From IMG/VR virus record IMGVR_UViG_3300017780_006957, positions 1-64,000 of that record: a stretch of DNA of 64,000 nt; one strand, 5' to 3'. Below, one piece after another: positions 13,046-54,420 of the stretch. Numbering within the stretch: position 1 is the stretch's first letter; each line of letters begins with the position of its first letter. Under the pieces are notes generated by a model, which had not been told where the DNA came from, searched no databases, and saw nothing but the letters and a program-made list of their open reading frames with translations. Source of the DNA: a virus. The translations under genes were made by a program, and so were the position numbers.

Positions 13046-13297
13046 TTTTTTTCCTTTTTCCTTTCATTGTTACACTTGTTTTTGTTTTTAGTTTTTTCCT
13101 TTTTCCAAAATACGGTCCCGTATTTTTTTTACTTTACGTTTAGAGCTTTTGTGAATGAGTGGATGAGAAAGTGAGGAAACTGTCCCCCCGCCGTTTCTGT
13201 TAGGTTAGACTAACAGAAGTTTTGAGTAATGGGGGGGGGTCAGTCTAACGGTCTGTTAGCCTAACGGTCTGTTAGCTCAGCATGGCCACGACATAGG

Positions 13298-13327
13298 AAA
13301 GCCCCGCCTTGTGAGGGCGGGGCTTTT
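13298..13327 (-). terminator. Intrinsic terminator
   Basis: AAAGCCCCGCC-TTGTGAG-GGCGGGGCTTT hairpin just downstream of the ORF ending at 13341. Confidence 0.75.
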
Positions 13328-13340
13328 CGGTTAGGTTAGA

Positions 13341-13583
13341 TTAGATGATGCCTTTGATATGAAGGGAGCGAAATTTTTCAATATCGCCGTCGTCGTGGTC
13401 TATCACATTGGCGACGAAATACCACTCGCCAGTCTTAACGGCACAAGCGATTTTGTCCACCGATACGATGGTAAAATTCCGATAGTCGTCGGTGTGGGGT
13501 AGAGCGGCGGCGGCGGCGGTTGCATAGCGGACGGATTGCCCGACGATACGGGTAACGATTGCGGTGGCTTCAATGATGGTCAT
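13341..13583 (-). CDS. Small hypothetical early protein
   Basis: MTIIEATAIV... downstream of a minus-strand TTGTGG...CATTCT promoter of the array type; ends at a terminator. Confidence 0.6.
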   Translation of the reverse strand: MTIIEATAIVTRIVGQSVRYATAAAAALPHTDDYRNFTIVSVDKIACAVKTGEWYFVANVIDHDDGDIEKFRSLHIKGII

Positions 13584-13756
13584 TTCAGGTATTCTGGTTT
13601 GGACTAGGGGCGGGGGCCTTGTGCCTCCCGACAAGGAAAGAATGCCATAGGACGGACCTTGCCACAAGCTTTCTTTTGTTCTTTTCAAAAGATTTTTTTC
13701 TGAAAAAAAAGGTTGACGACCTCCCGCGAGATCGGTCTAACGGAAATGTAGAGTGG

Positions 13757-13835
13757 CTATACTATAGCAAAGCTATACTATACTATACCATACTATACTA
13801 ACGGATGGTTAGAAGCTATACTATAGCTATACTAA
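13757..13835. repeat. Degenerate CTATA pentamer tandem repeat
   Basis: ctatactatagcaaagctatactatactataccatactatactaac...gctatactatagctatactaac. Confidence 0.75.
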
Positions 13836-13837
13836 CA

Positions 13838-13869
13838 AAATCTAACAGAACGCCCCTTCTGTTAGATTT
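13838..13869. repeat. 32-bp palindrome, copy 1
   Basis: AAATCTAACAG-AACGCCCCTT-CTGTTAGATTT. Confidence 0.9.
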
Positions 13870-13954
13870 CTGTCACTAATCTGTCACTAAGTTCTGCTAG
13901 ACCATTGTCAAGCTTTTTCTCAAAAGAAAGTTTTTTAATTGAACGAAATAGTTC

Positions 13955-13989
13955 TTGTGGTGGGTCCGTTCTTGTCCTATGATTTGGCC
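13955..13989 (+). promoter_or_regulatory. Sigma70-type leaderless promoter
   Basis: TTGTGG-17bp-TATGAT-6bp-ATG with an upstream A/T tract. Confidence 0.75.
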
Positions 13990-14259
13990 ATGTCCACGAC
14001 ATCCACCACCCGCCTAGTCCAAGTCCAATTCAACGTTGAAATTGGAGAAATTGAAAAAGAGTTGACCTTTGAATTCGAATACACGCCAAGTTGCAAAGGC
14101 TCACGCGACTTTTACGGTCAACAAAATGAGCCTGATACTAATGACGAAATGGAATTCGTCGCCGCCTATGACGAGGACGGCGAGGAGGTCGAAATCGCTT
14201 GCAAGCAAGAAATCGAATGCGCTTGTCAACTTGCATGGCAAGAGGTAGCAAACGACTAA
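13990..14259 (+). CDS. Small acidic early protein (paralog of 17101-17367)
   Basis: EYTPSCKGSRDFYGQQNEPD...DEDGEEVEI; start defined by the leaderless promoter. Confidence 0.8.
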   Translation: MSTTSTTRLVQVQFNVEIGEIEKELTFEFEYTPSCKGSRDFYGQQNEPDTNDEMEFVAAYDEDGEEVEIACKQEIECACQLAWQEVAND

Positions 14260-14298
14260 TCCAACCGCCCCCCGCAAGGGGGGCAAACCCTTTGCCCC

Positions 14299-14406
14299 AT
14301 GAAAATACTAACCGAAATCACATTCTGCGCGTTCCTTGGCCTCGCGCTTGTCACCGCCCCGCTTGCGTTGCGAGCGGTCCTCAAGCTGATAGAATCTATC
14401 AACTAA
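14299..14406 (+). CDS. 35-aa hydrophobic peptide
   Basis: MKILTEITFCAFLGLALVTAPLALRAVLKLIESIN, ending just before a terminator. Confidence 0.5.
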   Translation: MKILTEITFCAFLGLALVTAPLALRAVLKLIESIN

Positions 14407-14419
14407 CTCTAATCTAGCA

Positions 14420-14446
14420 GCCCACCCGAAAGGGTGGGTTTCTTTT
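14420..14446 (+). terminator. Intrinsic terminator (array family)
   Basis: GCCCACCC-GAAA-GGGTGGGT followed by TTCTTTT. Confidence 0.85.
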
Positions 14447-14473
14447 CTGCTAGAATCTAACCGTTAGTGACGA

Positions 14474-14505
14474 AAATCTAACAGAACGCGGCTTCTGTTA
14501 GATTT
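14474..14505. repeat. 32-bp palindrome, copy 2
   Basis: AAATCTAACAG-AACGCGGCTT-CTGTTAGATTT. Confidence 0.9.
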
Positions 14506-14712
14506 CTGTTAGAGTCTAACTATTAGGCCGTTACAAAATCACAGCCTAATCTAACTATTAGACCGTTAGAAAATCACAGCCTAACTCCCCATTCTGTTAC
14601 TTTTCTGCTAGGTAAATCTGCTAGGCTGTTGTCAAGCTTTTTCTTAAAAAAAGTTTTCAAATTAAGCGAAAAAGATCTTGCGGCGGGTCCGTTTCTCACC
14701 TATTCTTTGGCC

Positions 14713-14847
14713 ATGTCCAACACCGCCCAACTCCTAGAACAAGCCACCTGTTACTGCATTTATTTCGTGACCTTTATCGTCTGCCCCGTCATCGCGGGGT
14801 ATGCCCTAACAACTCTTTACTTCATCTTCAAAGACTTTCCCAACTAA
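14713..14847 (+). CDS. Small membrane protein, leaderless
   Basis: TTGCGG(14678)-17-TATTCT-6-ATG; hydrophobic, 44 aa. Confidence 0.65.
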   Translation: MSNTAQLLEQATCYCIYFVTFIVCPVIAGYALTTLYFIFKDFPN

Positions 14848-14848
14848 C

Positions 14849-14977
14849 ATGAAAACCCTCCTCTTCAACCTAACAAGAATCCTTTTCGCTACGGTAGCGT
14901 GTGCTACCTTCTGGGCCTTTGTCGCCTATGGTATCCACTCTGTCATTCAACCCTTCTTCCCATACTACCTACCATGA
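14849..14977 (+). CDS. Small membrane protein
   Basis: MKTLLFNLTRILFATVACATFWAFVAYGIHSVIQPFFPYYLP; ATGA overlap with the next ORF. Confidence 0.55.
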   Translation: MKTLLFNLTRILFATVACATFWAFVAYGIHSVIQPFFPYYLP

Positions 14978-15243
14978 CATCTAACGTCCAAGAGTTCCTT
15001 AAGAATCCAATTGATGCGCCACGCCACAAGGCTCGCGTCCTAGTCAATAGGGCAGTGAAAGATCTATCAGGTGGGGCTGTATGTCTCAGTGATCTAGCAG
15101 ATACGTTCAACCTGTGTGCTGGGTTGGATGAGTTGGAAGAGCTGATAGATGAGGCTGACGAGTTCACCCCCATGCAAGACCTGCTAGACGTAGCCCAAGA
15201 CATTGCGGCACAACTGCTAGAAGAAGAGGGCTTCCCCGCCTAA
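14974..15243 (+). CDS. Small acidic early protein
   Basis: MTSNVQEFL...LDELEELIDEADE...LLEEEGFPA; translationally coupled. Confidence 0.7.
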   Translation: MTSNVQEFLKNPIDAPRHKARVLVNRAVKDLSGGAVCLSDLADTFNLCAGLDELEELIDEADEFTPMQDLLDVAQDIAAQLLEEEGFPA

Positions 15244-15352
15244 CAGATCAAGCCCTGAGCATGGCGATAAAAGGCTCTAACTTTCTAACTGGTGGACATG
15301 GTAAGTCCTCGCCCCTGCGAGTGTAGGGCGGGGCAGTCTGCTAGAATCTAAC

Positions 15353-15384
15353 AAATCTAACAGGCCCCCTCTTCTGTTAGATTT
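15353..15384. repeat. 32-bp palindrome, copy 3
   Basis: AAATCTAACAG-GCCCCCTCTT-CTGTTAGATTT. Confidence 0.9.
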
Positions 15385-15518
15385 CTGTCACTAATCTGTC
15401 ACTAATCTGTCAGTAAATTCTGCTAGGAAAATGTCAAGCTTTTTCTCAAAAAAAAGTTTTCGAATCGCATGAAATAGTTCTTGCGGGTTTCTAGGTTTTC
15501 TGCCATTCTCTCCTTGCC

Positions 15519-15692
15519 ATGACACTACTTGCACCACTACTGATCCAACTCGAAATTGCCGAACGCGAAACCTCCGACCTCTGGCGCGAAACGCCTTGGG
15601 ACGAAAAAGGTTTTGAGTTGAATGAAAATTTGATTCGCTCCCTCAGAAATGCGATCATCGCAATCGACCCGACCGCCTACGAAATCCTCTGA
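15519..15692 (+). CDS. 57-aa early protein
   Basis: MTLLAPLLIQLEIAERETSDLWRETPWDEK...; between promoter TTGCGG(15481)-17-CATTCT and a terminator; absent from the supplied ORF track. Confidence 0.7.
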   Translation: MTLLAPLLIQLEIAERETSDLWRETPWDEKGFELNENLIRSLRNAIIAIDPTAYEIL

Positions 15693-15701
15693 ACCCTAAC
15701 A

Positions 15702-15729
15702 ACCCACCCGAAAGGGTGGGTTCCTTTTT
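15702..15729 (+). terminator. Intrinsic terminator (array family)
   Basis: ACCCACCC-GAAA-GGGTGGGT followed by TCCTTTTT. Confidence 0.85.
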
Positions 15730-15780
15730 GGTTAGAATCTAACAGAAAAAACTAGCAGCTTTTTAACAGTTTAGTGACGG

Positions 15781-15812
15781 AAATCTAACAGGCCCCCTTT
15801 TCTGTTAGATTC
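15781..15812. repeat. 32-bp palindrome, copy 4
   Basis: AAATCTAACAG-GCCCCCTTTT-CTGTTAGATTC. Confidence 0.9.
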
Positions 15813-15976
15813 TTGTTGGGATTCTGTTAGAGTCTAACTATTAGGTCATTAAAAAATCACAGCCTATTTAGGCATTAAAAAATTGCAGCCTGTCAAGTCT
15901 TTTCTCAAAAAAAAATAATCAAAGAAAACACAAAAAAGATCTTGTCGTGGGGTAAAATTTCACCTATTCTCCGAGT

Positions 15977-16129
15977 ATGAGCTTGCTCCCATTCCCAGCC
16001 GATTCCACTGAGTTCGAAGAATACGTTTCCGTCATGGAGGCTATGGCCGACGAGGCTATCGCGTCCACGCCCGATCCGCGCCCTGAAAATTTCTACTATG
16101 AAGATGGTCCTCGCTCCTACGCCCACTGA
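15977..16129 (+). CDS. 50-aa acidic early protein (paralog of 16588-16863)
   Basis: MSLLPFPADSTEFEEYVSVMEAMADEAIASTPDPRP...; promoter TTGTCG-17-TATTCT-6-ATG. Confidence 0.8.
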   Translation: MSLLPFPADSTEFEEYVSVMEAMADEAIASTPDPRPENFYYEDGPRSYAH

Positions 16130-16131
16130 TT

Positions 16132-16338
16132 ATGTATACCGTTGAATATTACCTTGTCGTTCCCCGCGCCGTGCGTGTCGGGGTTGCCATCCACTCCTCG
16201 CCCAAGGAGGCTTATCGTCTGGCTGTTTGCCGCGCCTACGATGCCTCTGCCGCCTCTGGCGGGTGTGAGAGTATCGGGGTGGAGGGCTACACCATGTGGC
16301 TTGATGGCAAAAAAATCCACTCCTTTTGCGACATTTAA
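16132..16338 (+). CDS. Small hypothetical early protein
   Basis: Starts 2 nt after the previous stop and ends at a terminator. Confidence 0.6.
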   Translation: MYTVEYYLVVPRAVRVGVAIHSSPKEAYRLAVCRAYDASAASGGCESIGVEGYTMWLDGKKIHSFCDI

Positions 16339-16345
16339 TCTTGAC

Positions 16346-16374
16346 AACCCGCTCGAAAGGGTGGGTTTCTTTTC
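16346..16374 (+). terminator. Intrinsic terminator (array family)
   Basis: ACCCGCTC-GAAA-GGGTGGGT plus a T tract. Confidence 0.8.
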
Positions 16375-16401
16375 GGTTAGAATCTAACAGAAAAGTAGTA
16401 G

Positions 16402-16433
16402 AAATCTAACAGAAGGCGTGTTCTGTTAGATTT
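16402..16433. repeat. 32-bp palindrome, copy 5
   Basis: AAATCTAACAG-AAGGCGTGTT-CTGTTAGATTT. Confidence 0.9.
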
Positions 16434-16587
16434 CCGTTAGAACCCAACTATTAGGCTGTTAGAAAATCACAGCCTATTTAGGTGTAGAAAAATTGCAGCC
16501 TGTCAAGCTTTTTCTTAAAAAAAAGTTTCAGAATAATGCAAAATAGTTCTTGTCATTGGTTCGTTTTTTAGTCATCCTCTGGTCGTT

Positions 16588-16863
16588 ATGAACCTCATTC
16601 CATTCCCTGCTGATTCCGCCGATTACGAAGAATACACCAGCGTTATGAACGCGATGGCTGACGAGGCCAATGCGTCCGCGCCCGATCCCGAGCCTGATGG
16701 CTGGTCGCCCGATGAAGAATCCGATGAGCTTCGCGCTCGTGAAGACGGTGACTACTACGCCAACCTCTACGAGCGCGAGGACGATTACGATGACGGTGAT
16801 CCCTACGGGTGCGACGATCAAATTTCTGAGTATGGCATGGAAGGGTGCTGCGGCGACTTCTGA
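16588..16863 (+). CDS. Very acidic early protein
   Basis: MNLIPFPADSADYEEYTSVMNAMADEA...EDDYDDGD; has its own promoter and terminator. Confidence 0.8.
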   Translation: MNLIPFPADSADYEEYTSVMNAMADEANASAPDPEPDGWSPDEESDELRAREDGDYYANLYEREDDYDDGDPYGCDDQISEYGMEGCCGDF

Positions 16864-16872
16864 ACCCTAACA

Positions 16873-16900
16873 GCCCACCCGAAAGGGTGGGTTCATTTTT
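16873..16900 (+). terminator. Intrinsic terminator (array family)
   Basis: GCCCACCC-GAAA-GGGTGGGT followed by TCATTTTT. Confidence 0.85.
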
Positions 16901-16927
16901 GGTTAGAATCTAACAGTTTAGTGACGA

Positions 16928-16959
16928 AAATCTAACGGAACGCCCCTTCCGTTAGATTT
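16928..16959. repeat. 32-bp palindrome, copy 6 (compensatory change in both arms)
   Basis: AAATCTAACGG-AACGCCCCTT-CCGTTAGATTT. Confidence 0.9.
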
Positions 16960-17100
16960 CTGTCACTAATCTGTCACTAAATTCTGCTAGAAAAATGTCA
17001 AGCTTTTTCTTGAAAAAAAGTTTTAGGAAAGACATAAAAAAAGCTTGTTGCTAGTCCGCTTCTGAACTATCTTCGGGCGTCTCCAAACCACCTAAAAAAA

Positions 17101-17367
17101 ATGAGCAAGCAAGTTGAAATATTCATGGATGTTGAAAAGCTGAATTCTGATGGCGATGTAATCGGATGTGACAGTATTCTTGTCGTTGGCGAATATTCGC
17201 CAGCGGAGAGAGGATCTTGTGATTACTACGGCCAAGCGATGGAACCCGACCTTCCCGATTCCATGGAAATCCTTTCTGCCACGACTGAGGATGGCGAGGA
17301 AATCGACCTTGGAAAATGCGAAGAAAGAGTCGCCTTAGAACTCCTATGGGAAGCGATTGCAGATTGA
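17101..17367 (+). CDS. Small acidic early protein (paralog of 13990-14259)
   Basis: EYSPAERGSCDYYGQAMEPD...TEDGEEIDL. Confidence 0.8.
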   Translation: MSKQVEIFMDVEKLNSDGDVIGCDSILVVGEYSPAERGSCDYYGQAMEPDLPDSMEILSATTEDGEEIDLGKCEERVALELLWEAIAD

Positions 17368-17375
17368 GCCTAACG

Positions 17376-17404
17376 GCCCGCCCTAACAAGGCGGGCTTCT
17401 TTTT
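17376..17404 (+). terminator. Intrinsic terminator
   Basis: GCCCGCC-CTAACAA-GGCGGGC followed by TTCTTTTT. Confidence 0.8.
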
Positions 17405-17431
17405 GGTTAGAATCTAACGGTTTAGTGACAG

Positions 17432-17463
17432 AAATCTAACAAAACGCCTCTTCTGTTAGATTT
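17432..17463. repeat. 32-bp palindrome, copy 7
   Basis: AAATCTAACAA-AACGCCTCTT-CTGTTAGATTT. Confidence 0.88.
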
Positions 17464-17631
17464 TCGTTAGATCTGTTACTTACTCAGTATTAAGGACTTA
17501 TCTATTTACAGCCTATTTAATTGCAGATGAATTGCAGCCTATTTGTCAAGAAAAAAATCACAGGACAGTAGAAATAAATATCCAAAAAAGATCTTGCAAG
17601 GGCCATTGTTCTCTGTCATTCTCTCCTCGCC

Positions 17632-17784
17632 ATGAAACTACTAAAGAAAATCTACTACTATCTCAACCCACTTCCTGCCCCCAAATACGGCGCATCAATC
17701 TTTGAACAAAAAAGCTGGTTGACAAAGCAAACCGAGGAGGCTATGTTTCGCCAAGCGAAAGCTCACATCTATCAAACACGCTAA
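17632..17784 (+). CDS. 50-aa basic early protein
   Basis: MKLLKKIYYYLNPLPAPKY...; promoter TTGCAA(17594)-17-CATTCT. Confidence 0.55.
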   Translation: MKLLKKIYYYLNPLPAPKYGASIFEQKSWLTKQTEEAMFRQAKAHIYQTR

Positions 17785-17794
17785 CTCTCCACAT

Positions 17795-17977
17795 ATGAAA
17801 ATATATAAAATTCCCTGCGTTTGGGAAGTCTATGGACACTTGGAAATCGAAGCTGAATCATTGGAAGGCGCGATTTCTATTGCTGAAGATGACGATACCA
17901 ACCTGCCCATTGAAAGCTCTTACATTGAAGGATCTTTTTGGGTTGATTGCGACGGCATTGACCTTGACGAAGAATAA
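17795..17977 (+). CDS. Small acidic hypothetical protein
   Basis: EIEAESLEGAISIA motif seen in many small phage early proteins. Confidence 0.7.
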   Translation: MKIYKIPCVWEVYGHLEIEAESLEGAISIAEDDDTNLPIESSYIEGSFWVDCDGIDLDEE

Positions 17978-18016
17978 AATTGACAAAGGGGGCGAAAGCC
18001 CCCACACTTTCCCCGT

Positions 18017-18337
18017 ATGAATACACTACCACCACCACCCGCCATTATCAAAGTGAACACAGACTTCTCCGCAGGATTGGATCTTCGTAATCCATTAGAA
18101 TCTGCCGCCTATCTTAAAGCAGCAAGCCACTTCCTCTCATCTTGGCCGCAAGATTGGTCTGCCGAACGCCTTTGCTTGGCAATGATTGACGAGGAATCTC
18201 CTGATAAAGATCTAGTCAAACCTTGGGAAGCTCTAACAAAAGACCTTCACCCAATGGATGACCCCTTGTTCTTTGTGGAAGAATTAATCAATGGCTTGGC
18301 CGAGGACTTTTTGATCTTTCTATCAGAAAACGCATGA
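18017..18337 (+). CDS. Hypothetical acidic protein
   Basis: 106 aa; preceded by TTGACA-17-CACACT. Confidence 0.7.
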   Translation: MNTLPPPPAIIKVNTDFSAGLDLRNPLESAAYLKAASHFLSSWPQDWSAERLCLAMIDEESPDKDLVKPWEALTKDLHPMDDPLFFVEELINGLAEDFLIFLSENA

Positions 18338-18507
18338 ACGCTCTCGAAAAACTTCAAGATGTAAAAGAGTATATCTCCACTCTAATTAACGGGAGCGAAG
18401 CCGAAGCTATTGATCTATTGGTCAACTATGGCGAAATGATGGAAGAAAATCTAGCAGAAGTAATAAAAGAATTATTCGATGAAACATCTAGTCCTAACAA
18501 TCCATAA
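18334..18507 (+). CDS. 57-aa acidic protein
   Basis: ATGA overlap with the previous ORF; MNALEKLQDVKEYIST... Confidence 0.6.
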   Translation: MNALEKLQDVKEYISTLINGSEAEAIDLLVNYGEMMEENLAEVIKELFDETSSPNNP

Positions 18508-18617
18508 AAATCATGTATCTTATCGCATGGGCAATCGTTGTGGCAGTCATTGTTTTTCTGGCGACCCGCCGCAGAAAGTAGTTGACTACCTAATCAAACT
18601 AATCAATCCTTCTTCAC

Positions 18618-18806
18618 ATGAAATCATTTGAACGCACCGCCGAATCTATCGAACTCGATCCTTGCTCAAGCTATTGGTTAAAAGAAAGAATTAAAGAACT
18701 CCGTGAGCGCGATCCTTTCGACGCTTTGCGCGACATTGAAACATTGAATTGGCTTTTTGAAATGAGAGCCGAAGAATTGAAACCTTCTTACATGAAAGGG
18801 CTTTAA
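18618..18806 (+). CDS. Hypothetical protein
   Basis: DPCSSYWLK...RDPFDALRDIETL; TAATG coupling to the next ORF. Confidence 0.7.
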   Translation: MKSFERTAESIELDPCSSYWLKERIKELRERDPFDALRDIETLNWLFEMRAEELKPSYMKGL

Positions 18807-19126
18807 TGTTAACCGTGCAAGAAGCCGATTGTTTTATCAAATTAGAGTTGAAATCGTGGGGTCTAAAAAACTATTCGTGGGAATGGGCGGGCTTTTCTCA
18901 TTTGGGAGAAGCTCACCCCCATAAAAACAAAATTAAATTGTCTCCACGAATTCTTTCCTCCTCTGCTCTTCTGATTGAAATTGTAAAACATGAAATCGCC
19001 CATTGTTTAGATTGGAATGAACGTGGGACATTTGCAAGAAATGGCAAAAATGATTTTCATGGTAAAAATTGGAAAAAATACTGCTTGCTTGTCGGATGCC
19101 GTCCGCGTAGATTGATCCCGTTATGA
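18806..19126 (+). CDS. SprT-like zinc metalloprotease
   Basis: IKLS...HEIAH...HGKNWK SprT signature. Confidence 0.8.
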   Translation: MLTVQEADCFIKLELKSWGLKNYSWEWAGFSHLGEAHPHKNKIKLSPRILSSSALLIEIVKHEIAHCLDWNERGTFARNGKNDFHGKNWKKYCLLVGCRPRRLIPL

Positions 19127-19284
19127 AAACAATTGATATGACTCCCACTTGGTCTGATATTCTTCCCATTCTGATTCGTCTGATTGGAAACTACAAAACC
19201 CACAAAGATGCATCTATCGAATTGGCTCGCATGGCCAAAATGGCTGATGCCTATATTGAAAGCCAAAAAACAAAAGATTTCTAG
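19123..19284 (+). CDS. 53-aa hypothetical protein
   Basis: MKTIDMTPTWSDILPIL...ELARMAKMAD; ATGA overlap. Confidence 0.6.
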   Translation: MKTIDMTPTWSDILPILIRLIGNYKTHKDASIELARMAKMADAYIESQKTKDF

Positions 19285-19342
19285 TTGACATGGTGTGGGT
19301 AAGGGCGAGGGGGTCTGGTAGCCTCCTCGCCCAACTCGCTGA

Positions 19343-19374
19343 AAATCTAACAGAAGAGGGCCGCTGCTAGATTC
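19343..19374. repeat. 32-bp palindrome, copy 8 (spacer inverted)
   Basis: AAATCTAACAG-AAGAGGGCCG-CTGCTAGATTC. Confidence 0.88.
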
Positions 19375-19557
19375 TGTTAGAAATCTGTTACTTTTCTGTT
19401 AGTCGAGCTGTTAGGCGATAAAAGATGAAAAACAATGAAAAAGATGTGGACAAGTCCGCTGGCTGTGCTATTCTTTCCCCAGCGAAAGCAAACAAAAGAA
19501 GACCAGATGCTTCGCCCCAGCAGAAAGGGGCAACCTCAAACCAAACCACACAAAAAA

Positions 19558-43098: not shown

Positions 43099-45000
43099 TT
43101 ATTTCATTTTAAGAATCTTTCTCAGGTCTTCTCTTGAATATTTTTCAATATTGTAATGATAATTGCCCAACGAAGTGACAAGTTTAGATCTAATAGAATT
43201 TTCTTGTTGAAGTTTTTCCCAAAAGCAATTCAGCTTTTTGGCATTTTTATCTTTTTTAATTGCATCATGGGTTCTTGAATTAAAATTGACCCATCGTTTC
43301 ATACAGGAATTACGAGCGAATTCTTTTGCCCTTTCTTCTGATTCAATTTTGTCGAAAGATTCTTTTAGTTGTTTTGATTTAAGTGACTTGGCGTTATTCC
43401 AACCAAGTTTCTCCATATCTTTGACAAATACATGAGAGTTACTTTGATGACACTGATTTCGTCCTTCTTTAATACAAATAGAGAATTTCAAAACCTCTGA
43501 AAAATGTTTTGCGTTTTCAATTAGTTCTTTGTTTTGAGTCAATGCTTCTTCTTCATTATTTGCATTAGATAGGTTGTGATATGATCGAATATAATTGTGG
43601 AATTCCAATGCAGTCATTTGATTGGGGTATTTATATCCCCTCTGATCATAAACTGAATAAGTTTTTGGCAACTTATTATTTGAAGTTTTCGGCAACTTAA
43701 TAATCTTTACTGAAGCAATATGAAAATTCTCTTTAATCTTTTCGACATCAGTATTCTTATTATTTAAATCTGAATCAGCGACAAAGTAATAACTCTCTCC
43801 TGTCAGTTTGCAGTAGTTCGTAATTTTATTTAACCAGTAGTCATAATTACCAGTATTTGGTGCAATTAAAATAACTGATTTATTATTTTTCTTAGCAATA
43901 TTACCTTCTTTATTGATTTGAATTACGTTGTGTAAGGTGAAATAAACATCTTTAAACAATACAGACTTCCTTGCTTCAAAGATTTCTCCAGTATACAGGG
44001 AATTATCTAGTTGACTAAGGCAGTCGTCCAAAAGATCAAAAATAGATTTTGATTTAAATTGAGCCAAATCTTCTTCGTTTAATTCTTCAATTGTTTTATT
44101 GATTTTATCAAGCACCAACTTGTTGGCGGTAGTATTTTCAAAATTTTCGCGGCTAATTGGTATCGACATCATTCCAATTGGAATATCAATAACTAAAATA
44201 TGATTTCGTTTAATATTGAAATTTTTATCTTTAACAGAAGATCCATATGTTACTCCTCCCATTTGAAAAATGGTTTCCATATATGATGATGACCCGCCAT
44301 AGTTTAACAACCGAAATTTAAATCCATTTCTTTCGAAAGATTTAATTGTTTCGAATGGAGAAATAATGAGATTACCAATCGTGGCTTCTATTTTTGCTGG
44401 AGACAGGTGAATGAAATCTTGAATTTCTCGTTTGAAGTCAGAATAATCAGCAGAAAAAATAGGAACGGAAACTTCTAATCCTGTTTCGTTTGTATCGCAT
44501 TCATCGATCTTATAGATATGACCAACGGGAACTCCAGAATCTCCAGCACCCAAAACGCAAGTGTAGGTTGTGCATTTTCCATTGAAATAAGAAGTCACAA
44601 AGAAAGTGTCATTATAACAATGCCCAGCTTTCGATCCGACACCAAAGCCACCAATCGAATCATTTGATTTTGATTTTGTTGAGCGGAAATACATTCCAAA
44701 GATGTTGCGAACACCTTCTTCACTCAAACCCTTGGCAAAATCACGAACATAAAAAGTATGTTCGTTGTTTTCAAGACGCAAACCAGTTTGAACAGTTTCT
44801 TTAACGTCGAATTTATTGTGTTCGTCAATAGCATTACAAAGATATTCTCTTACGACGGCTTTGATTTTATTTGAATAAATCTTATCTCGCAAGTGCCATG
44901 TCGCTATTTCCATGCCTTTAAAATCCATACCCATGATAGAGTTTTGCATGTTGTCTGATGTTAAGAGCGGGGAGCAGGTAGCGTTCATTTTCATATCCAA
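43099..45000 (-). CDS. rIIA: rIIA-like GHKL ATPase
   Basis: IYSNKIKAVVREYLCNAIDEH, VRDFAKGLS, STKSKSND.IGGFGVGSK. Confidence 0.85.
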   Translation of the reverse strand: MDMKMNATCSPLLTSDNMQNSIMGMDFKGMEIATWHLRDKIYSNKIKAVVREYLCNAIDEHNKFDVKETVQTGLRLENNEHTFYVRDFAKGLSEEGVRNIFGMYFRSTKSKSNDSIGGFGVGSKAGHCYNDTFFVTSYFNGKCTTYTCVLGAGDSGVPVGHIYKIDECDTNETGLEVSVPIFSADYSDFKREIQDFIHLSPAKIEATIGNLIISPFETIKSFERNGFKFRLLNYGGSSSYMETIFQMGGVTYGSSVKDKNFNIKRNHILVIDIPIGMMSIPISRENFENTTANKLVLDKINKTIEELNEEDLAQFKSKSIFDLLDDCLSQLDNSLYTGEIFEARKSVLFKDVYFTLHNVIQINKEGNIAKKNNKSVILIAPNTGNYDYWLNKITNYCKLTGESYYFVADSDLNNKNTDVEKIKENFHIASVKIIKLPKTSNNKLPKTYSVYDQRGYKYPNQMTALEFHNYIRSYHNLSNANNEEEALTQNKELIENAKHFSEVLKFSICIKEGRNQCHQSNSHVFVKDMEKLGWNNAKSLKSKQLKESFDKIESEERAKEFARNSCMKRWVNFNSRTHDAIKKDKNAKKLNCFWEKLQQENSIRSKLVTSLGNYHYNIEKYSREDLRKILKMK

Positions 45001-45070
45001 AATATATCTGGCATTGAGATTGTTTGCAAGAAAATTATTTGCAAGGGATAAAATAAGTGTAATTCATTTT

Positions 45071-45787
45071 ATGAAAAAATGTTCTAAATGCAGTATCAAA
45101 AAAAATGAAAACGAATTTGATCAATGTAAAAATGTCAAATCTGGCATATATCCTTCATGCAAAGAATGTCGTAAAAAATACAGAATTGAAAATAAAGAAT
45201 TTTTAAAACAAAAAAATAAAGATTATTATGATAAAATCAAAGAAAATGATGATTTTTTAAATAAGAGAAAAATATATTATCAAAAAAATAAAAATACAAT
45301 AATTGAACAATCTAAAATTAACTACAACAAAAATAGAAATTTATATAATAAAAAAAGAAATCTTCGAATAAAATTTCGTTTAAAAAACGAGCCAGAATTA
45401 AAATTAATTAAAAATATAAGAAGAATGATTAATAGAGTAATTACAACAAAAAATCAAAAATCTATTTATTATTTAGGGGTAAAGTCTGCGGAAGAATTTA
45501 TTGAGTTAATGAATCAAAAAACATCTAATAAAAATTGGATTCAAGATGATTATCATATCGACCATATCTGGCAAGTTCATTGGTTTTCGGAAGCTTTAAA
45601 AGAAAATGCAGAAAAAACATGCTTAATGATCAATCATCATAGTAATTTGCGCCCAATACGAGCGGAAGAAAATTTAATTAGATCCAAACAAGATTTTGAT
45701 ATTTTAAAATATGAAGATTTTGCAAAATACAAGAATTATTTAAATATAAGTATTTTAGAAGAAATTAAATTATATAAAAATTGGTAA
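45071..45787 (+). mobile_element. HNH-type homing endonuclease
   Basis: MKKCSKC...CKEC, a Lys-rich linker, YHIDHI...HHSNLRP...EN; GTGTAA upstream; opposite strand to neighbours. Confidence 0.75.
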
Positions 45788-47506: not shown

Positions 47507-47529
47507 TGGAGCGGAATGTCAGAGTGAAA
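47507..47529 (-). pseudogene. 3' fragment of a Gly-type tRNA
   Basis: TTTCACT-CTGAC-ATTCCGC-T-CCA on the minus strand, overlapping the endonuclease stop. Confidence 0.55.
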
Positions 47530-48175
47530 TATAATATTTAATAAAAGTTATACATTTTTCAAGAAAAATTGGAAAATCATTTTTTTTCTTATAATTTAAA
47601 TCATTAGATGAAATTCTCATTATATTCCAACCATTTTTTATTAAATTTGAATCTCTAATAGCATCTTTTTCTTTGTCGTGCCATTTTATACCATCATATT
47701 CTATATTTATTTTATAATCTGGTAAAGCTATATCGAGATAAATATTATCGACTTTGTACTCTTGTTGTAATTCTGGAAATATCTTTTTTAATTCTTCAAA
47801 TAATATATTTTGCCAATAAGATTTTTTACCAGCACATTTCTTATTTGGATGTTTTTCTGGATTTAATTTAAAAAATTCTTTTTTTGATAAAGACATTTTT
47901 AATTTACTTTCATCGCTTCTTTTTGAACCAAGATTTTTTAAAGATAAAGCTTTTTTTCTTTCAAGAGTCCAACTTTCTTTAAGTTTTTGTTTTCTATCCT
48001 CAGTACAAGGTAAAGTTTTTTTGCCTTTTATTGGAGATATTCTACCAGTTGCTTTTTGACTTCTTATTGAATTAATTTCTTCAGTCCAAATTCTTGAATT
48101 AGCGCAAGATCTAGAACAAAAAATACCACTGCCAAATGTTCCATTATGATCTATATTGCATTTTTTACATTGCAT
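47519..48175 (-). mobile_element. Homing endonuclease (zinc finger, NUMOD3, DUF559/Vsr-like domain)
   Basis: CKKC...FCSRSC, RSDESKLKMS, YLDIA...INIEYDGIKWHD. Confidence 0.8.
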
Positions 48176-48218: not shown

Positions 48219-48292
48219 TGGTGCGTTATGTGGTAGTCGAAACCACGCTACTAGAGTGGAAGTCTAGTGTGCTACCGTAACACTTATAACGC
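48219..48292 (-). tRNA. tRNA-Gly(UCC)
   Basis: GCGTTAT/ATAACGC acceptor, CTTCCAC loop, TTCGACT T-loop, CCA. Confidence 0.88.
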
Positions 48293-48297
48293 AAAAT

Positions 48298-48369
48298 TGG
48301 TGGAGCATTTCGGAACTGCCCCGAAGTCCGCAATGCATATAGCATTACGTCGAAATCTATATATGCCCC
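48298..48369 (-). ncRNA. Minimal tmRNA-like RNA (tRNA-like domain only)
   Basis: GGGGCAT-ATATAGATTTCGAC-GTAATGC-TATAT-GCATTGC-GGAC-TTCGG-GGCAGTT-CCGAA-ATGCTCC-A-CCA; G3.U70 pair, no D-stem. Confidence 0.8.
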
Positions 48370-48852
48370 TTAACTTTCTTTATTAAACATTACATAATTA
48401 TGAACAGAAACAACATAATCTTCTGCTACAGCAAGTTTACCCTGCATCCATGTTTCTGTCAAGTTATCTTGCACTTTTAAATCATCTAAAGCTGCCAAAA
48501 TGTTTTCGGCGTGAGATTTGATTGAAGCAATAGATCCAATAGCCATTTCATAAAGATCTTTCTTGTATTCGGTCAACTCCTCTTCTGGACTTTCATCTTC
48601 CATTTCTGGAGCATTAAAATCCACTTCTTCAGCCTTGCTAACTTTTTTAAGTGGTTCTGCAAAATCAAGAAATTCATCATCGCCAGATCCGACGACAACA
48701 TCAGCAGAAGCTTTGGCTTGATCGAATTGAGTATAACAGATTGCAATGCGCTGTTGATTGTCTTTGAACTTAGGGTCTTTGGCTACTTCAGAGATGCAGC
48801 GGCCCACAAAATCCTTTTTCTTTTCTTTTTTCTCAGGAGTTGGTAAAGGCAT
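48370..48852 (-). CDS. Late hypothetical protein
   Basis: MPLPTP...DFVGRCI...QRIAICY motif; GTGTAA upstream. Confidence 0.65.
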   Translation of the reverse strand: MPLPTPEKKEKKKDFVGRCISEVAKDPKFKDNQQRIAICYTQFDQAKASADVVVGSGDDEFLDFAEPLKKVSKAEEVDFNAPEMEDESPEEELTEYKKDLYEMAIGSIASIKSHAENILAALDDLKVQDNLTETWMQGKLAVAEDYVVSVHNYVMFNKES

Positions 48853-48880
48853 AATTTTATATTTAAAATATATTACACTT

Positions 48881-49126
48881 TTAATGCATGAAGTTAATAA
48901 TTTTCTGAACAGCGACTTCAATGTCCGTTGCGTCTCTTATGATTTTATCTTCAGACCAACTATGGGCCGCATTATATGAGTGATTTTTCATCAATTTATT
49001 TGTTTTTAAATCTACCCAATGGAAAGACTGCCAATCGACAAGATCTTTTAGGTTTTTTATGGTGATTCTCTGTTCTTCATATTTGTTGATTTCGATTTCA
49101 ATAGTAGATGTTCCTTTGATTTTCAT
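48881..49126 (-). CDS. Hypothetical protein
   Basis: 81-aa ORF. Confidence 0.5.
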   Translation of the reverse strand: MKIKGTSTIEIEINKYEEQRITIKNLKDLVDWQSFHWVDLKTNKLMKNHSYNAAHSWSEDKIIRDATDIEVAVQKIINFMH

Positions 49127-49359: not shown

Positions 49360-49980
49360 TTATTTATTGTTTAGATAGAATTTTTTTAGCACTACTTTAT
49401 TTAAGCCTCTACGACTTTCGATTTCAGGAATGATTGTTTTACGAATCCAATTTCTTTCATACCTTTGATCTTCGTTGCTCTCATCAATTTGAAGATACTT
49501 GAAAAGATTGTTTTTGTCAACCCAATTTTCAAAATTCTTTTTAATGTTCAAGATGAATGGGCGATAGATAGAAAAAGAATTAAAATCAGTAAATTCTTGA
49601 ATTGGTTTGTGTTCTGGGCAACCTTTTAAAGTATTACTTATATAACTCTCTACAGCGTCTTGTAAATGCTGGCATTGAATAATTGACCCACCCACTTGAG
49701 AAAAGAATTTTAATCTTTCTTTCCTTAGTCCATCTTCAATATTTTTATCAATCTTAATAGAACATTTTTCTGTGATAAGATTAATTTTATAGTCAGAACA
49801 AAATCTTTCGCAAGCCTTTTGCATAAGGTTGTTTTGCGGTCTTTGATTATGATTATAGTGAATAGCTTGAAATTTTTGTCCAGATTTATGAAGAAAATGA
49901 GCGCAAGCTAGACTATCTATACCGCCAGAGATAGCAATACTATAAGTTTTTGGTAGGTATTTTTTATTTATTTTGATCAT
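49360..49980 (-). CDS. tilS: tRNA(Ile)-lysidine synthetase-like PP-loop ATPase (N-terminal domain only)
   Basis: IAISGGIDS, HYNHNQR, QHLQDAVES, RPF, DESN...YERNWIR. Confidence 0.85.
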   Translation of the reverse strand: MIKINKKYLPKTYSIAISGGIDSLACAHFLHKSGQKFQAIHYNHNQRPQNNLMQKACERFCSDYKINLITEKCSIKIDKNIEDGLRKERLKFFSQVGGSIIQCQHLQDAVESYISNTLKGCPEHKPIQEFTDFNSFSIYRPFILNIKKNFENWVDKNNLFKYLQIDESNEDQRYERNWIRKTIIPEIESRRGLNKVVLKKFYLNNK

Positions 49981-50388: not shown

Positions 50389-50396
50389 AATTAAAG

Positions 50397-50486
50397 TACA
50401 AAAGGTGAGACTCGAACTCACAAAGGACTTTCACGTCCATAACGGTTTATGAAACCGCGCCCTTAACCAATTCGGGTCACTTTTGC
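50397..50486 (-). tRNA. tRNA with CAU anticodon (Ile2 or Met) and a long variable arm
   Basis: GCAAAAG/CTTTTGT acceptor, GCGGT-TTCATAA-ACCGT, variable arm GGAC-GTGAAA-GTCC, TTCGAGT T-loop. Confidence 0.8.
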
Positions 50487-52164: not shown

Positions 52165-52238
52165 GGCTCCCAGTTTTGGCAACGATCCAAACTCACACTG
52201 CTTAACAGGCAGGTCGCACGCCCTGTGCGTTACTGGGA
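52165..52238 (-). tRNA. tRNA-Asn(GUU) with an atypical T-loop
   Basis: TCCCAGT/ACTGGGA acceptor, G73, CTGTTAA loop, T-loop ATCGTTG. Confidence 0.78.
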
Positions 52239-52268
52239 TTTATATCTTATTATATAAGAATAAGAAAG

Positions 52269-53458
52269 TTTTTCTATCGCTGAAGAAGTCCCCCGTTTCC
52301 ACAGAGGTCAATGACCCTTCTTCACTTTTCTACAAGTACTAACTCGCTGGAGAGTTTGACCACGCGATGCGTAGCTACACTCATTTTCCTGTCCGTTTTC
52401 TCTGAATACTTCGGGCGATCAAAACGCACGATAGAAAATTGACCAATTCCTGACCTGCCGCGCACTACTTTATCAGGTATAGCCGCTTGCAGTCAGGCAA
52501 TTGGAAATGGTTTTGCGGCTCAGGTCGCTATATCGTGCAATGTGTTCCCAACCGAATAATCGTCTCGAAAGACTCGATTTCTATCAACTGCATTAACCCA
52601 TCACTGAATCGTGCGTTTTATGTTGACTACCTTGCACAAACGTCTTAGTTGACGAATACCCCTCAATGACCGCAAAATTAGTTTATCTGTCAGACCTTAA
52701 CGCCTATGCCCCTCGCGCATAGACAGCATCTTCGCTGGTTCACGGATGGGCCACTTTGTAGTGCCGTAAGTGCAGCACCTCAGACGGATCTCCAGCATAG
52801 GTCTTCACAGCTGTGTGTAGATATTCTCGACAGATAAAAAATGCAGAAGAGATTGGATTCGAACCAATATTGTACCATACTGCCCTTGGGCATCCAAGGA
52901 ATCGAACCTTAACGAAATAACCGTCGCTATTGCATTGCCGTTATGCTACTCTTCTAAAAAAGGTGGCTAGAGTGTTTGTGGAATCTCAGGAATTGCATCC
53001 TGTTATACTAGTAACTTGCCAGATTCCCTCTAGCCATTGAAAATTTGTCCATAGAGTATGCACTCTCAATGCGTTATGCAGGACTGGCACTAGCTATATG
53101 AATCCTTATAGCTGGAGAAGGAAGCCCGTAACCTTCATATGGCTTTTTATATTTACAATGTATGGTTATTAACCCACACGGAATTTCAAGCATTAACCCA
53201 CTACGTATATGGTAACTCACCGATTTCCATTGCAAAAATTAATATTCCTTTAATGGTAGGCGTTGTCGCATTCAAATCTCTACCCACCACAATCGCTTCA
53301 AGATTCTCGTTCGCTTACCGCACGGGGCATGAAGCCCCTTGTCCCATTAAGGGAATAAAATTTTTAAAATTTTTATTTATTAAAGAACAGTATTTTATCT
53401 CTAATCGTTGACTAGAGAGGATCTTTCGAATCTGAGTGACTCCTATTCAATCGATCTA
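52269..53458 (-). ncRNA. Tandem cluster of unassigned structured ncRNAs
   Basis: GC-richer stretch without a credible ORF, made of units each closed by a terminal helix and separated by A/T linkers. Confidence 0.7.
52842..52955 (-). ncRNA. tRNA-like RNA with an expanded anticodon region containing a second T-loop hairpin
   Basis: AGAAGAG/CTCTTCT acceptor, GCAT-AACGGCA-ATGC D-arm, ATTGG-TTCGAAT-CCAAT T-arm, internal AAGG-TTCGATT-CCTT. Confidence 0.7.
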
Positions 53459-53463
53459 TTTAG

Positions 53464-53492
53464 ATAATAACTTATGTTTTCGCTTATGTCAA
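53464..53492 (-). promoter_or_regulatory. Sigma70-type promoter heading the ncRNA cluster
   Basis: TTGACA-17-TATTAT. Confidence 0.7.
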
Positions 53493-53495
53493 CTT

Positions 53496-53714
53496 TTATC
53501 TTAGATTTAATTCACTCTCTACTTTTCGGAATCTGTCATCAGAATGCCAGATTTCATTTACTTGTGGAGTATAAACTCCATCAAGGGTTTGAATCGGGAC
53601 GTTCTTTTGCAGCTTTAAAGTAGAAGGTTGATAAATTTTCCAGTTCTTCACGTTCTCGTTTGAGTTCCATACGCAGGAGGTCTGCGCGATCAGCAGAAGA
53701 GCTGCCCCCATCAT
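53496..53714 (-). CDS. Putative o-spanin (Rz1-like lipoprotein)
   Basis: MMGAALLLIAQTSC lipoprotein-like signal; starts inside the upstream ORF in another frame. Confidence 0.5.
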   Translation of the reverse strand: MMGAALLLIAQTSCVWNSNENVKNWKIYQPSTLKLQKNVPIQTLDGVYTPQVNEIWHSDDRFRKVESELNLR

Positions 53715-53856: not shown

Positions 53857-54420
53857 TTATATAAAACTTTTCCACTCTTTTCTAATTTTGGACACCTGAA
53901 GAAAAAGATTAGGAATTACTGGAGCTTTTACTATTTCATTTTTAATATTAAAAAATGGAGAATGATCGGACTTCTTTTGATTGCAGTCAAGACAAGCCAA
54001 AGTCCTATTTTCGTGTTCATCAGTTCCGCCCTTACTTTTTGGTTTGATGTGATCAATAGTAAGATCTGCGATTTTAAATTTCTTTAAACAATACTGGCAA
54101 ATAGAATCATGAATTCTGCTTAATTCCGCCAAAGATAGTTTTTTCTTTTTGGGTTTTTTAAAAAATTTACTGGTTACAATAATAATTGTTGGAATTGGCC
54201 AAGAGCGTTTTGCGCTACGAAGAACGGGCTGATCTTCATGGAACTCCGCATAATCATTCCACTTCTCTATAGAATCAAACAAATTATTGTTTTTATCTAA
54301 AGCGGTGACATTTTGACTTAATAGATGCGCGAAAGCAGCCTTTGCTGTGATGGCAGTGATAGGTTGCCAAGCGTTATTAAGTAAGAGTGTGGTTCTAGTA
54401 TTGCAATCTACGATGTTCAT
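53857..54420 (-). CDS. HNH endonuclease (McrA-like)
   Basis: TLLLNNAWQPI, CQYC, LTIDHIKPKSKGG, LACLDCN. Confidence 0.85.
   Translation of the reverse strand: MNIVDCNTRTTLLLNNAWQPITAITAKAAFAHLLSQNVTALDKNNNLFDSIEKWNDYAEFHEDQPVLRSAKRSWPIPTIIIVTSKFFKKPKKKKLSLAELSRIHDSICQYCLKKFKIADLTIDHIKPKSKGGTDEHENRTLACLDCNQKKSDHSPFFNIKNEIVKAPVIPNLFLQVSKIRKEWKSFI

Follow-up and report, generated by a model that had tools for sequence, protein, structure and literature searches.

At positions 48298-48369 on the minus strand of a 64,000-nucleotide (nt) stretch of viral DNA (positions 1 to 64,000 of the IMG/VR virus record IMGVR_UViG_3300017780_006957, hereafter the window) lies a 72-nt RNA gene. On the basis of its sequence, its fold, its score with a covariance model of phage RNAs (R1) and partial matches to transfer-messenger RNA (tmRNA) families, we assign it as a tag-less tmRNA that consists of the tRNA-like domain (TLD) only, with an encoded CCA end; we refer to RNAs of this architecture as mini-RNAs or mini-tmRNAs. 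Jointly with the mechanism considered below, we hold with moderate confidence that the window RNA is a functional phage gene for the TLD of tmRNA closed by a short hairpin. Immediately upstream on the same strand is an open reading frame (ORF; 48370-48921, probable start ATG at 48852, ~160 residues) that matches no Pfam or PHROG family and whose TAA stop codon abuts G1 of the RNA with zero spacer. Five nt downstream of the CCA is a gene for tRNA-Gly(UCC) (48219-48292, minus strand), identified by both ARAGORN and Rfam and followed by a T-run, which is probably part of the same precursor as the mini-RNA.

Sequence, fold and detection of the 72-nt RNA

All parts of the RNA lie on the minus strand and can be assigned without a gap. 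The 5′ strand of the acceptor stem, GGGGCAU (48363-48369, with G1, G2 and G3), pairs at 7/7 positions with the 3′ strand AUGCUCC (48302-48308), and the latter is followed by the discriminator A73 and CCA (ACCA, 48298-48301), so that the 3′ end as a whole occupies 48298-48308. The acceptor leads into a stemless D-loop, AUAUAGAUUUCGAC (48349-48362), which is of the A18 G19 type and has UUCGAC at its end. The helix that follows, P2, is a 7-bp hairpin (48330-48348) formed by the strands GUAAUGC (48342-48348) and GCAUUGC (48330-48336) and capped by the 5-nt loop UAUAU (48337-48341), and by sequence and fold it replaces the mRNA-like and pseudoknot domain of a tmRNA. A GGAC junction (48326-48329), which aligns to the CGGAC of the tmRNA_permuted and alpha_tmRNA consensus sequences in Rfam, lies 5′ of the T-arm (48309-48325), whose strands UUCGG (48321-48325) and CCGAA (48309-48313) form 5/5 pairs around GGCAGUU (48314-48320), a 7-nt T-loop on a 5-bp stem and of the variant type G54 G55 C56 A57 G58. 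The D stem is absent, and UUCGAC and GGAC, both of which align to columns of R1 and of the Rfam tmRNA models, flank P2. The pairs G1-C72, G2-C71 and G3.U70 together with A73 constitute the alanine identity set, and the RNA carries this set along with the CCA end. No resume codon, tag ORF, pseudoknot or stop codon is present in the RNA, the closing hairpin being in their place. The minimum free energy fold has the same three helices (-26.3 kcal/mol, z = -3.3), and 0/200 shuffled sequences folded as stably.

Standard tools did not call this gene. ARAGORN identified seven tRNAs in the window and not the 72-nt RNA, and a search of the window with Rfam at the gathering score returned tRNAs only, with no match at the RNA. 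When an 80-nt stretch was scanned alone against all of Rfam, only tmRNA families were matched; RF04321 (tmRNA_permuted) scored 27.4 bits against a gathering score of 47 and RF01849 (alpha_tmRNA) 22.7 bits against 50, each over the 3′ half of the RNA only, and neither the tRNA family RF00005 nor the mitochondrial family RF02544 (mt-tmRNA) gave a match at E up to 10. The Rfam tmRNA models expect a message domain, which the mini-RNA does not have; the bacterial tmRNA model RF00023 gives sibling mini-RNAs 65 and 51 bits, over its gathering score, when laxer filters are used. Model R1, by comparison, was built from 53 phage sequences with the window RNA and its nearest relative left out, and it recovers the window RNA over its full length at 57.5 bits (E 7.6e-11), the runner-up in the 64 kb being a tRNA-Arg at 18.9 bits. 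The 72-nt RNA is far beyond chance. A canonical tRNA could be ruled out by the lack of an ARAGORN call and of an RF00005 match, the 5-nt loop and the missing D stem. In other contigs ARAGORN did call tmRNAs, 324-343 nt long and with a mini-RNA at their end; the one at locus L009 is an artefact, with its 5′ end in coding sequence and an implausible tag peptide, and those at L051 and L087 are likely artefacts of the same kind.

A preliminary description of this RNA, made from the letters alone, had named the acceptor, G3.U70, the stemless D-loop, the 7-bp helix with UAUAU, GGAC and the T-arm, and these assignments stand base for base; its proposal of a tmRNA TLD with the mRNA-like domain exchanged for a hairpin loop is borne out by the sequence, the fold and the R1 score. 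Its suggestion that ARAGORN and Infernal tmRNA models could verify the RNA held in part, in that tmRNA families alone were matched, while ARAGORN was silent and the Rfam scores fell under gathering.

It was conceivable that the RNA is one piece of an ordinary two-piece tmRNA, as the preliminary description had noted. We found no tmRNA-family match at the gathering score and no second R1 match elsewhere in the window, no tmRNA-family match at E up to 5 in the 1.2-kb unassigned structured-RNA array at 52.2-53.5 kb, and no short ORF ending in Ala-Ala-stop between 45 and 54.5 kb. The complete relative of the window phage (G001; 139,990 bp, CheckV 100% complete) has no RF00023, RF04321 or RF01849 match besides its mini-RNA. 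An SmpB domain was found neither in three CheckV-100%-complete genomes of mini-RNA phages, G001 among them, nor in the window ORFs near the RNA, which are a subset of the window's ORFs. Moreover, P2 ends in a loop of its own and leaves no strand with which a coding piece could pair, and the order of 5′ half, hairpin and 3′ half is not that of a circularly permuted gene. The two-piece form was thus rejected, with neither a coding piece nor smpB having come to light in the window (ORFs near the RNA) or in G001. Both a full tmRNA and a mini-tmRNA are present in an unrelated phage contig of 123.6 kb (G003, IMGVR_UViG_3300025362_000004), where the full tmRNA (C1:77588-77979; RF00023, 94 bits) and the mini-tmRNA (C1:46486-46567, 65 bits) lie 31 kb apart in the company of ~28 other tRNA-like matches.

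Relatives of the RNA in phages and bacterial contigs

The preliminary description had raised a search of phage contigs for short homologs with covariation, and these were found in large numbers. At least 119 viral contigs match a first pattern (GGGG, 9-13 nt, TTCGAC, 12-42 nt, GGAC, 21 nt, TCCACCA), against a chance expectation estimated at a handful. The pattern fixed G3 and U70 and left the T stem and acceptor pairs 4-7 free. The viral matches listed comprise 89 unique RNAs of 64-85 nt, all of which have 7/7 acceptor and 5/5 T-stem pairs. In an alignment of 53 of the first-pattern sequences, again excluding the window RNA and its nearest relative, 98% of cells are paired and 13/18 pairs have changes in both bases, with a covariation score of 0.707 versus 0.18 for shuffled alignments (0/500 reach 0.707), and registers slid along the alignment give at most 0.15.

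Because G3 and U70 had been fixed in the first pattern, the scan was repeated with the acceptor left free, using a second pattern that constrains the D-loop end, GGAC and the T-loop only. This adds at least 120 further loci. The matches listed include 92 unique sequences with a perfect T stem, 90 of them with a complete acceptor helix, and G1-C72, G2-C71, G3.U70 and A73 are present in 90/90 of these unconstrained members; the same identity set is kept in the clade of relatives that share the window's gene order and in the RNA of mycobacteriophage DS6A, discussed below. As far as these alignments can tell, the alanine identity is selected and not imposed by the search. Only 23/90 of the listed second-pattern members encode CCA, so that roughly one member in four was within reach of the first pattern. 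Like the identity set, UUCGAC and GGAC are conserved among family members. Matches to the first pattern in contigs of bacterial genomes were accepted as mini-RNAs only with 12/12 stem pairs, as many of them proved to be chance matches in high-GC DNA or alphaproteobacterial permuted tmRNA genes. By these sequence criteria, hundreds of unrelated phage contigs, and contigs of bacterial metagenome-assembled genomes (MAGs), carry the mini-RNA architecture, which ARAGORN and Rfam at the gathering score, as used in standard annotation, overlook. The mini-tmRNA family is known, common and mostly unannotated in phages, and it is larger and more uniform than the literature suggests.

To have a test that was not biased by the RNA sequence itself, we searched viral contigs with the protein of the upstream ORF. 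All six contigs with a homolog (68-80% identity) carry, 0-1 nt past its stop codon, an R1 match of 35-56 bits, with a tRNA-Gly or a tRNA-Ser next in line. The order mini-RNA then tRNA-Gly also occurs at L121, L125, L131 and L135. The nearest relative of the window RNA (L021, on the same contig as L121) is set apart from it by double changes at three pairs, all of them compensatory, without any change that disrupts a pair: C5-G68 has become U5-A68 in the acceptor, and in P2 an A-U has become G-C and a G-C has become A-U. Metagenome contigs supply more close relatives (L128, L130, L131, L133 and L135). Across the close relatives the hairpin stem is kept by compensation while its loop varies in sequence and length, and the hairpin is therefore a structural cap and not a message. 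A deletion relic, the possibility against which the preliminary description had set its proposal, is ruled out because all six related contigs have kept the RNA in this position and because of the compensatory changes.

The surroundings of the RNA are not constant over the family. Among the first-pattern matches listed, only 15/118 loci have a tRNA within 300 nt, and the tRNA-cluster setting is a feature of the window clade and not of the family. No candidate for a partner protein emerged, in that no neighbor family occurs at more than 13 of the 153 loci with unique RNAs; the commonest neighbors over these loci are prohead protease, capsid protein, helix-turn-helix proteins, endonuclease VII and a DnaB-like protein. 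At ~12 viral loci (e.g., L289 and L312) the mini-tmRNA stands between the genes for prohead protease (Peptidase_S78) and major capsid protein on the same strand, and in this subclade it is inside a late structural operon.

The D-loop and T-loop vary in concert, as counted over the 89 unique first-pattern sequences listed. T-loop positions 55-56 are UC or CC with a D-loop GG in 48/49 cases, GC with a D-loop AG in 29/30 (the type of the window RNA), and UU with a D-loop UGA in 10/10. The 19:56 pair (alignment pair 13-64) is G-C in 42 sequences and A-U in seven, and positions 54/58 vary jointly, judged by eye, as U/A, G/G, C/A or A/U. Covariation at 18:55 and 19:56 over the whole family is in favor of a tRNA-like elbow. 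Two elbow types are found within the window clade itself: the window RNA, L021, L128, L130 and L135 have AUAG with GGCRGYU, and L122-L126 have GG with UUCRAUN. Switching of this kind within a clade is what a selected tRNA-like elbow would predict, and supports it.

In the alpha_tmRNA consensus, CGGAC is followed by the T-loop GGCgGUA and the D-loop is AAAUAGGAUCGAC; the window RNA (with AUAG in its D-loop and GGCAGUU as T-loop) has the same elbow type. One explanation could be an alphaproteobacterial host or origin. As a marker the elbow is not reliable, however, because three Firmicutes MAGs contain mini-RNAs with an AG/NGC elbow beside tmRNAs of their own with the canonical GG/UUCGA, and because both types occur in the window clade; a rule by which alpha-type T-loops would identify alphaproteobacterial hosts, or imitate the TLD of the host, was not upheld. 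In two other MAGs, one of Bacillota (G008; L181/L362) and one of Victivallales (G007; L155/L364), the mini-RNA has the T stem of the bin's own tmRNA and nearly its acceptor, and in G007 the T-loop and D-loop differ from those of the bin's full-length tmRNA. The likeness in these two bins suggests that the mini-RNA was recently derived from the host tmRNA or has come to match it, and at least some lineages have probably captured their RNA from hosts.

Other features of the window

The window belongs to an uncultured, low-GC phage (~35% GC) that is related to the 140-kb contig G001. Searches of isolate phages by megablast and blastn gave no match for the 2-kb region around the RNA or for the RNA itself. 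The best protein match was a virion protein with ~50% identity to Synechococcus myoviruses, RIIA had only ~30%, and an 877-residue ORF of the window had no match at all in the protein search. Judged by these comparisons, the window phage is distant from cultured phages.

The tRNA cluster in which the RNA lies has several further features, all on the minus strand unless stated. A gene at 49360-49980 encodes a 206-residue PP-loop ATPase (PF01171, 2e-30) that resembles TilS/lysidine synthase, and adjoining it at 50396-50486 is an unusually long tRNA of 91 nt with the anticodon CAU; from their sequences, the two may represent a phage tRNA-Ile2 and its modifying enzyme. Relatives also have 84-91-nt genes called as tRNA-Met(CAT). 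Upstream of genes for tRNA-Asn and tRNA-Thr, ~1.2 kb (52230-53500) is without a credible ORF, and at 52844-52955 a 112-nt match to the tRNA model (40 bits) has a large insertion that replaces the anticodon arm. Three homing-type endonuclease genes, at 47519-48175, 44912-45787 (plus strand) and 53857-54420, lie in or around this tRNA and non-coding RNA region and are of the DUF559/MTES_1575-like, Endo VII-like and HNH kinds.

A second unusual region, at 13000-19500 and extending to ~23400, consists of ~6.5 kb at 42-45% GC, compared with the ~35% of the phage, and has no ORF longer than 115 residues. At least eight repeated cassettes of 500-650 nt each were recognized here, and every one has a G+C hairpin with a U-run, a 33-nt palindrome (AAATCTAACAGAA-N6-TTCTGTTAGATT), a small ORF, repeats of TCTGTCACTAA and AAAATCACAGCCTA, and a TTGTCAAGC box. 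The region looks like an array of small early-gene cassettes with a common operator, promoter and terminator.

Known counterparts and the possible function of the RNA

A phage TLD-only tmRNA had already been published, that of mycobacteriophage DS6A, which is listed as "TLD only" (Hudson, Lau and Williams 2014, PMC4131195; PMC11915505) and is entry tmID 11587 of the tmRNA Website. The passages that these two papers devote to it, citing Mao et al. 2009, report strong inhibition of tmRNA in E. coli by a TLD-only RNA like that of DS6A, and according to the corresponding passage in PMC4131195 the RNA has this effect whether or not it can be charged, "perhaps acting by titrating SmpB". Full-text literature searches returned no paper that describes a widespread phage family of TLD-only tmRNA. 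DS6A is thus the single published phage example, with one inhibition experiment, and the window RNA is another member of that kind; the novelty implied by the preliminary description was overrated to this extent.

With R1, the DS6A RNA (L120:979-1061) scores 53.2 bits, and it has no annotation in its GenBank record, having been missed by annotation as the window RNA was by ARAGORN and Rfam. Both RNAs are phage-encoded, in one piece and in standard order, with a 7-bp acceptor, G3.U70, A73, a stemless D-loop ending in GAC, a single closing helix for the mRNA-like domain, and a T-arm. The DS6A RNA differs in its size (~80 nt) and in a longer P2 region with an internal A-rich loop, where the 72-nt window RNA has a plain hairpin, and it has GGUCGAC and GCAC in place of UUCGAC and GGAC. 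It also has a canonical UUCGAUU T-loop with a GG D-loop, whereas the window RNA has the AG/GGCAG elbow, and it does not encode the CCA that is encoded in the window. The settings differ as well, DS6A being a high-GC temperate-type Mycobacterium siphovirus and the window RNA standing in the tRNA cluster of a low-GC phage.

Bacterial tmRNA (RF00023) and the two-piece alphaproteobacterial form (RF01849, RF04321) share all of their TLD features with the window RNA. The window RNA, however, is without a resume codon, tag ORF, pseudoknots and stop codon, and its gene order is standard and not permuted. Coding-sequence (CDS)-less tmRNAs have been described from jakobid mitochondria, including the "re-permuted" gene of Jakoba libera, and from two Mallomonadaceae plastids (~65 bp; PMC11915505). 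These organellar RNAs are also reduced to the TLD, are of similar size and are kept together with SmpB, and the mitochondrial ones are of alphaproteobacterial descent (PMC11915505). They are not viral, and their SmpB is nucleus-encoded, whereas that of a phage RNA must be the host's; the architecture is alike, although the mitochondrial model RF02544 gave no sequence-level match at E up to 10. The same design, in which a small loop links the 5′ and 3′ portions of tmRNA, has been made synthetically: a 63-nt T. thermophilus TLD construct (5′ 25 nt, UUCG and 3′ 34 nt; PDB 2CZJ) was crystallized with SmpB. This protein binds to the TLD and stimulates aminoacylation of it, and in the A and P sites the two together act as a mimic of a complete tRNA (PMC3929946). 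Such fragments are man-made, have canonical T-loops and imply no function in vivo.

We consider it somewhat probable, from the architecture of the RNA and these precedents, that the mini-tmRNA is a competitor of host tmRNA at the level of the ribosome and blocks tagging. The two functions put forward in the preliminary description, sequestration of SmpB/EF-Tu and tag-less alanylation, are also the two that we would place first. The RNA would be cut from the precursor of ORF, RNA and tRNA-Gly by RNase P and 3′ processing and would be charged with alanine by the host alanyl-tRNA synthetase (AlaRS) via G3.U70 and A73. Host SmpB would bind the D-loop/T-loop elbow and the UUCGAC/GGAC junction, and EF-Tu would deliver the charged RNA to stalled ribosomes with an empty mRNA channel, where it would accept the nascent chain and outcompete host tmRNA. 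As there is neither a resume codon nor a stop codon, no ssrA degradation tag would be added, and the net effect would be that trans-translation by the host is blocked or diverted during infection. The main argument for this role is that, because G3.U70 and A73 are invariant, charging, and hence EF-Tu binding and ribosome entry, appears to be what is selected.

Several points weigh against this role. Expression, processing, alanylation, SmpB binding and the effect on tagging are all predicted only. The T-loop GGCAGUU is without U54 and U55, unlike the E. coli and T. thermophilus TLDs used in biochemistry. In view of the published inhibition data, a pure SmpB sponge would suffice and ribosome entry would not be required; the gain to a lytic phage from blocked tagging is also conjectural. 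A full-length tmRNA may also be encoded elsewhere in this ~140-kb phage, of which 64 kb were examined, since the unrelated contig G003 has both forms.

A possible, if tentative, alternative is that the RNA performs a productive rescue without a tag, in which ribosomes stalled on broken mRNAs in the infected cell are freed by the addition of one or several alanines and the chain is then released by a host hydrolase of the ArfB or Pth type, a further factor being needed because the RNA has no stop codon. Rescue of this kind would leave the translation machinery free for the phage, which would be spared both the expense of a 350-nt tmRNA and the degradation of its proteins. The position of the RNA in a phage tRNA cluster, a context of translation support, is consistent with it, as is the strict conservation of the alanine identity. 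The persistence of CDS-less tmRNAs with SmpB in jakobid mitochondria and in the two plastids suggests that a tagless function can be useful (PMC11915505), and a TLD fragment with SmpB is reported to have produced polyalanine in vitro without a template mRNA (Shimizu and Ueda 2006, as cited in PMC3929946). However, the 153 loci show no linkage of the RNA to any hydrolase or rescue factor, and the sole in vivo datum is inhibition of tmRNA.

It is unlikely that the RNA acts purely as a sponge that, off the ribosome, deprives host tmRNA of SmpB and perhaps also of AlaRS or EF-Tu. The inhibition by a TLD-only RNA regardless of charging, as given in the passage in PMC4131195 noted above, is what such a sponge would produce, and the conservation of UUCGAC and GGAC also fits. 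A sponge would have no need of G3.U70, A73 and an intact acceptor end, and yet these are invariant in 90/90 of the unconstrained members, and in the syntenic clade and DS6A besides.

Very unlikely, in our estimation, is some other role as a tRNA mimic, such as a processing handle for RNase P and RNase Z by which the upstream mRNA acquires its 3′ end, or a decoy that draws off host enzymes or defenses directed at tRNAs. Because G1 abuts the upstream stop codon, in the window and in its relatives, cleavage by RNase P would end the upstream mRNA at that codon, and other, unassigned tRNA-like RNAs lie nearby in the phage. However, most members do not stand beside tRNAs (15/118 of those listed, within 300 nt) and occur in unrelated contexts, and all keep the tmRNA-specific UUCGAC/GGAC and the alanine identity, which a processing handle would not need. 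That the RNA is half of a split tmRNA, or what is left of a full tmRNA or ssrA attachment site in decay, is scarcely credible, for although phages that integrate at ssrA do carry ssrA fragments (PMC9004378), both acceptor halves are present here and kept by compensation, P2 is closed by its own hairpin, the window offers neither another tmRNA-family match nor, at 45-54.5 kb, an Ala-Ala-stop mini-ORF, and the complete relative G001 has the mini form only.

Beyond competition with host tmRNA, one extension can be considered, which we regard as quite unlikely. Repeated entry of Ala-TLD.SmpB into ribosomes with an empty channel could produce template-free, C-terminal oligo-alanine tails on stalled nascent chains, a natural equivalent of the polyalanine made in vitro with a TLD fragment and SmpB. 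If true, the tailing would enable the phage to target host fragments to ClpXP-type decay or else to recycle ribosomes with no host tag being added. On this reading the conserved G54/G55 variant of the T-loop, in which neither m5U54 nor pseudouridine 55 is possible, might free the RNA from dependence on these two modifications by the host.

Trans-translation, the principal pathway by which bacteria rescue ribosomes and maintain protein quality, is an antibiotic target. The mini-RNA family would provide a natural library of minimal ligands of SmpB, AlaRS and EF-Tu, including covarying elbow variants such as AG/GGCAG and GA/UUU. To this family the window copy adds a compact 72-nt example that has an alphaproteobacterial-type elbow, follows its upstream stop codon with no spacer and heads a tRNA sub-cluster. 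Interference of phages with ribosome rescue, or its takeover by them, would be a testable and probably widespread theme.

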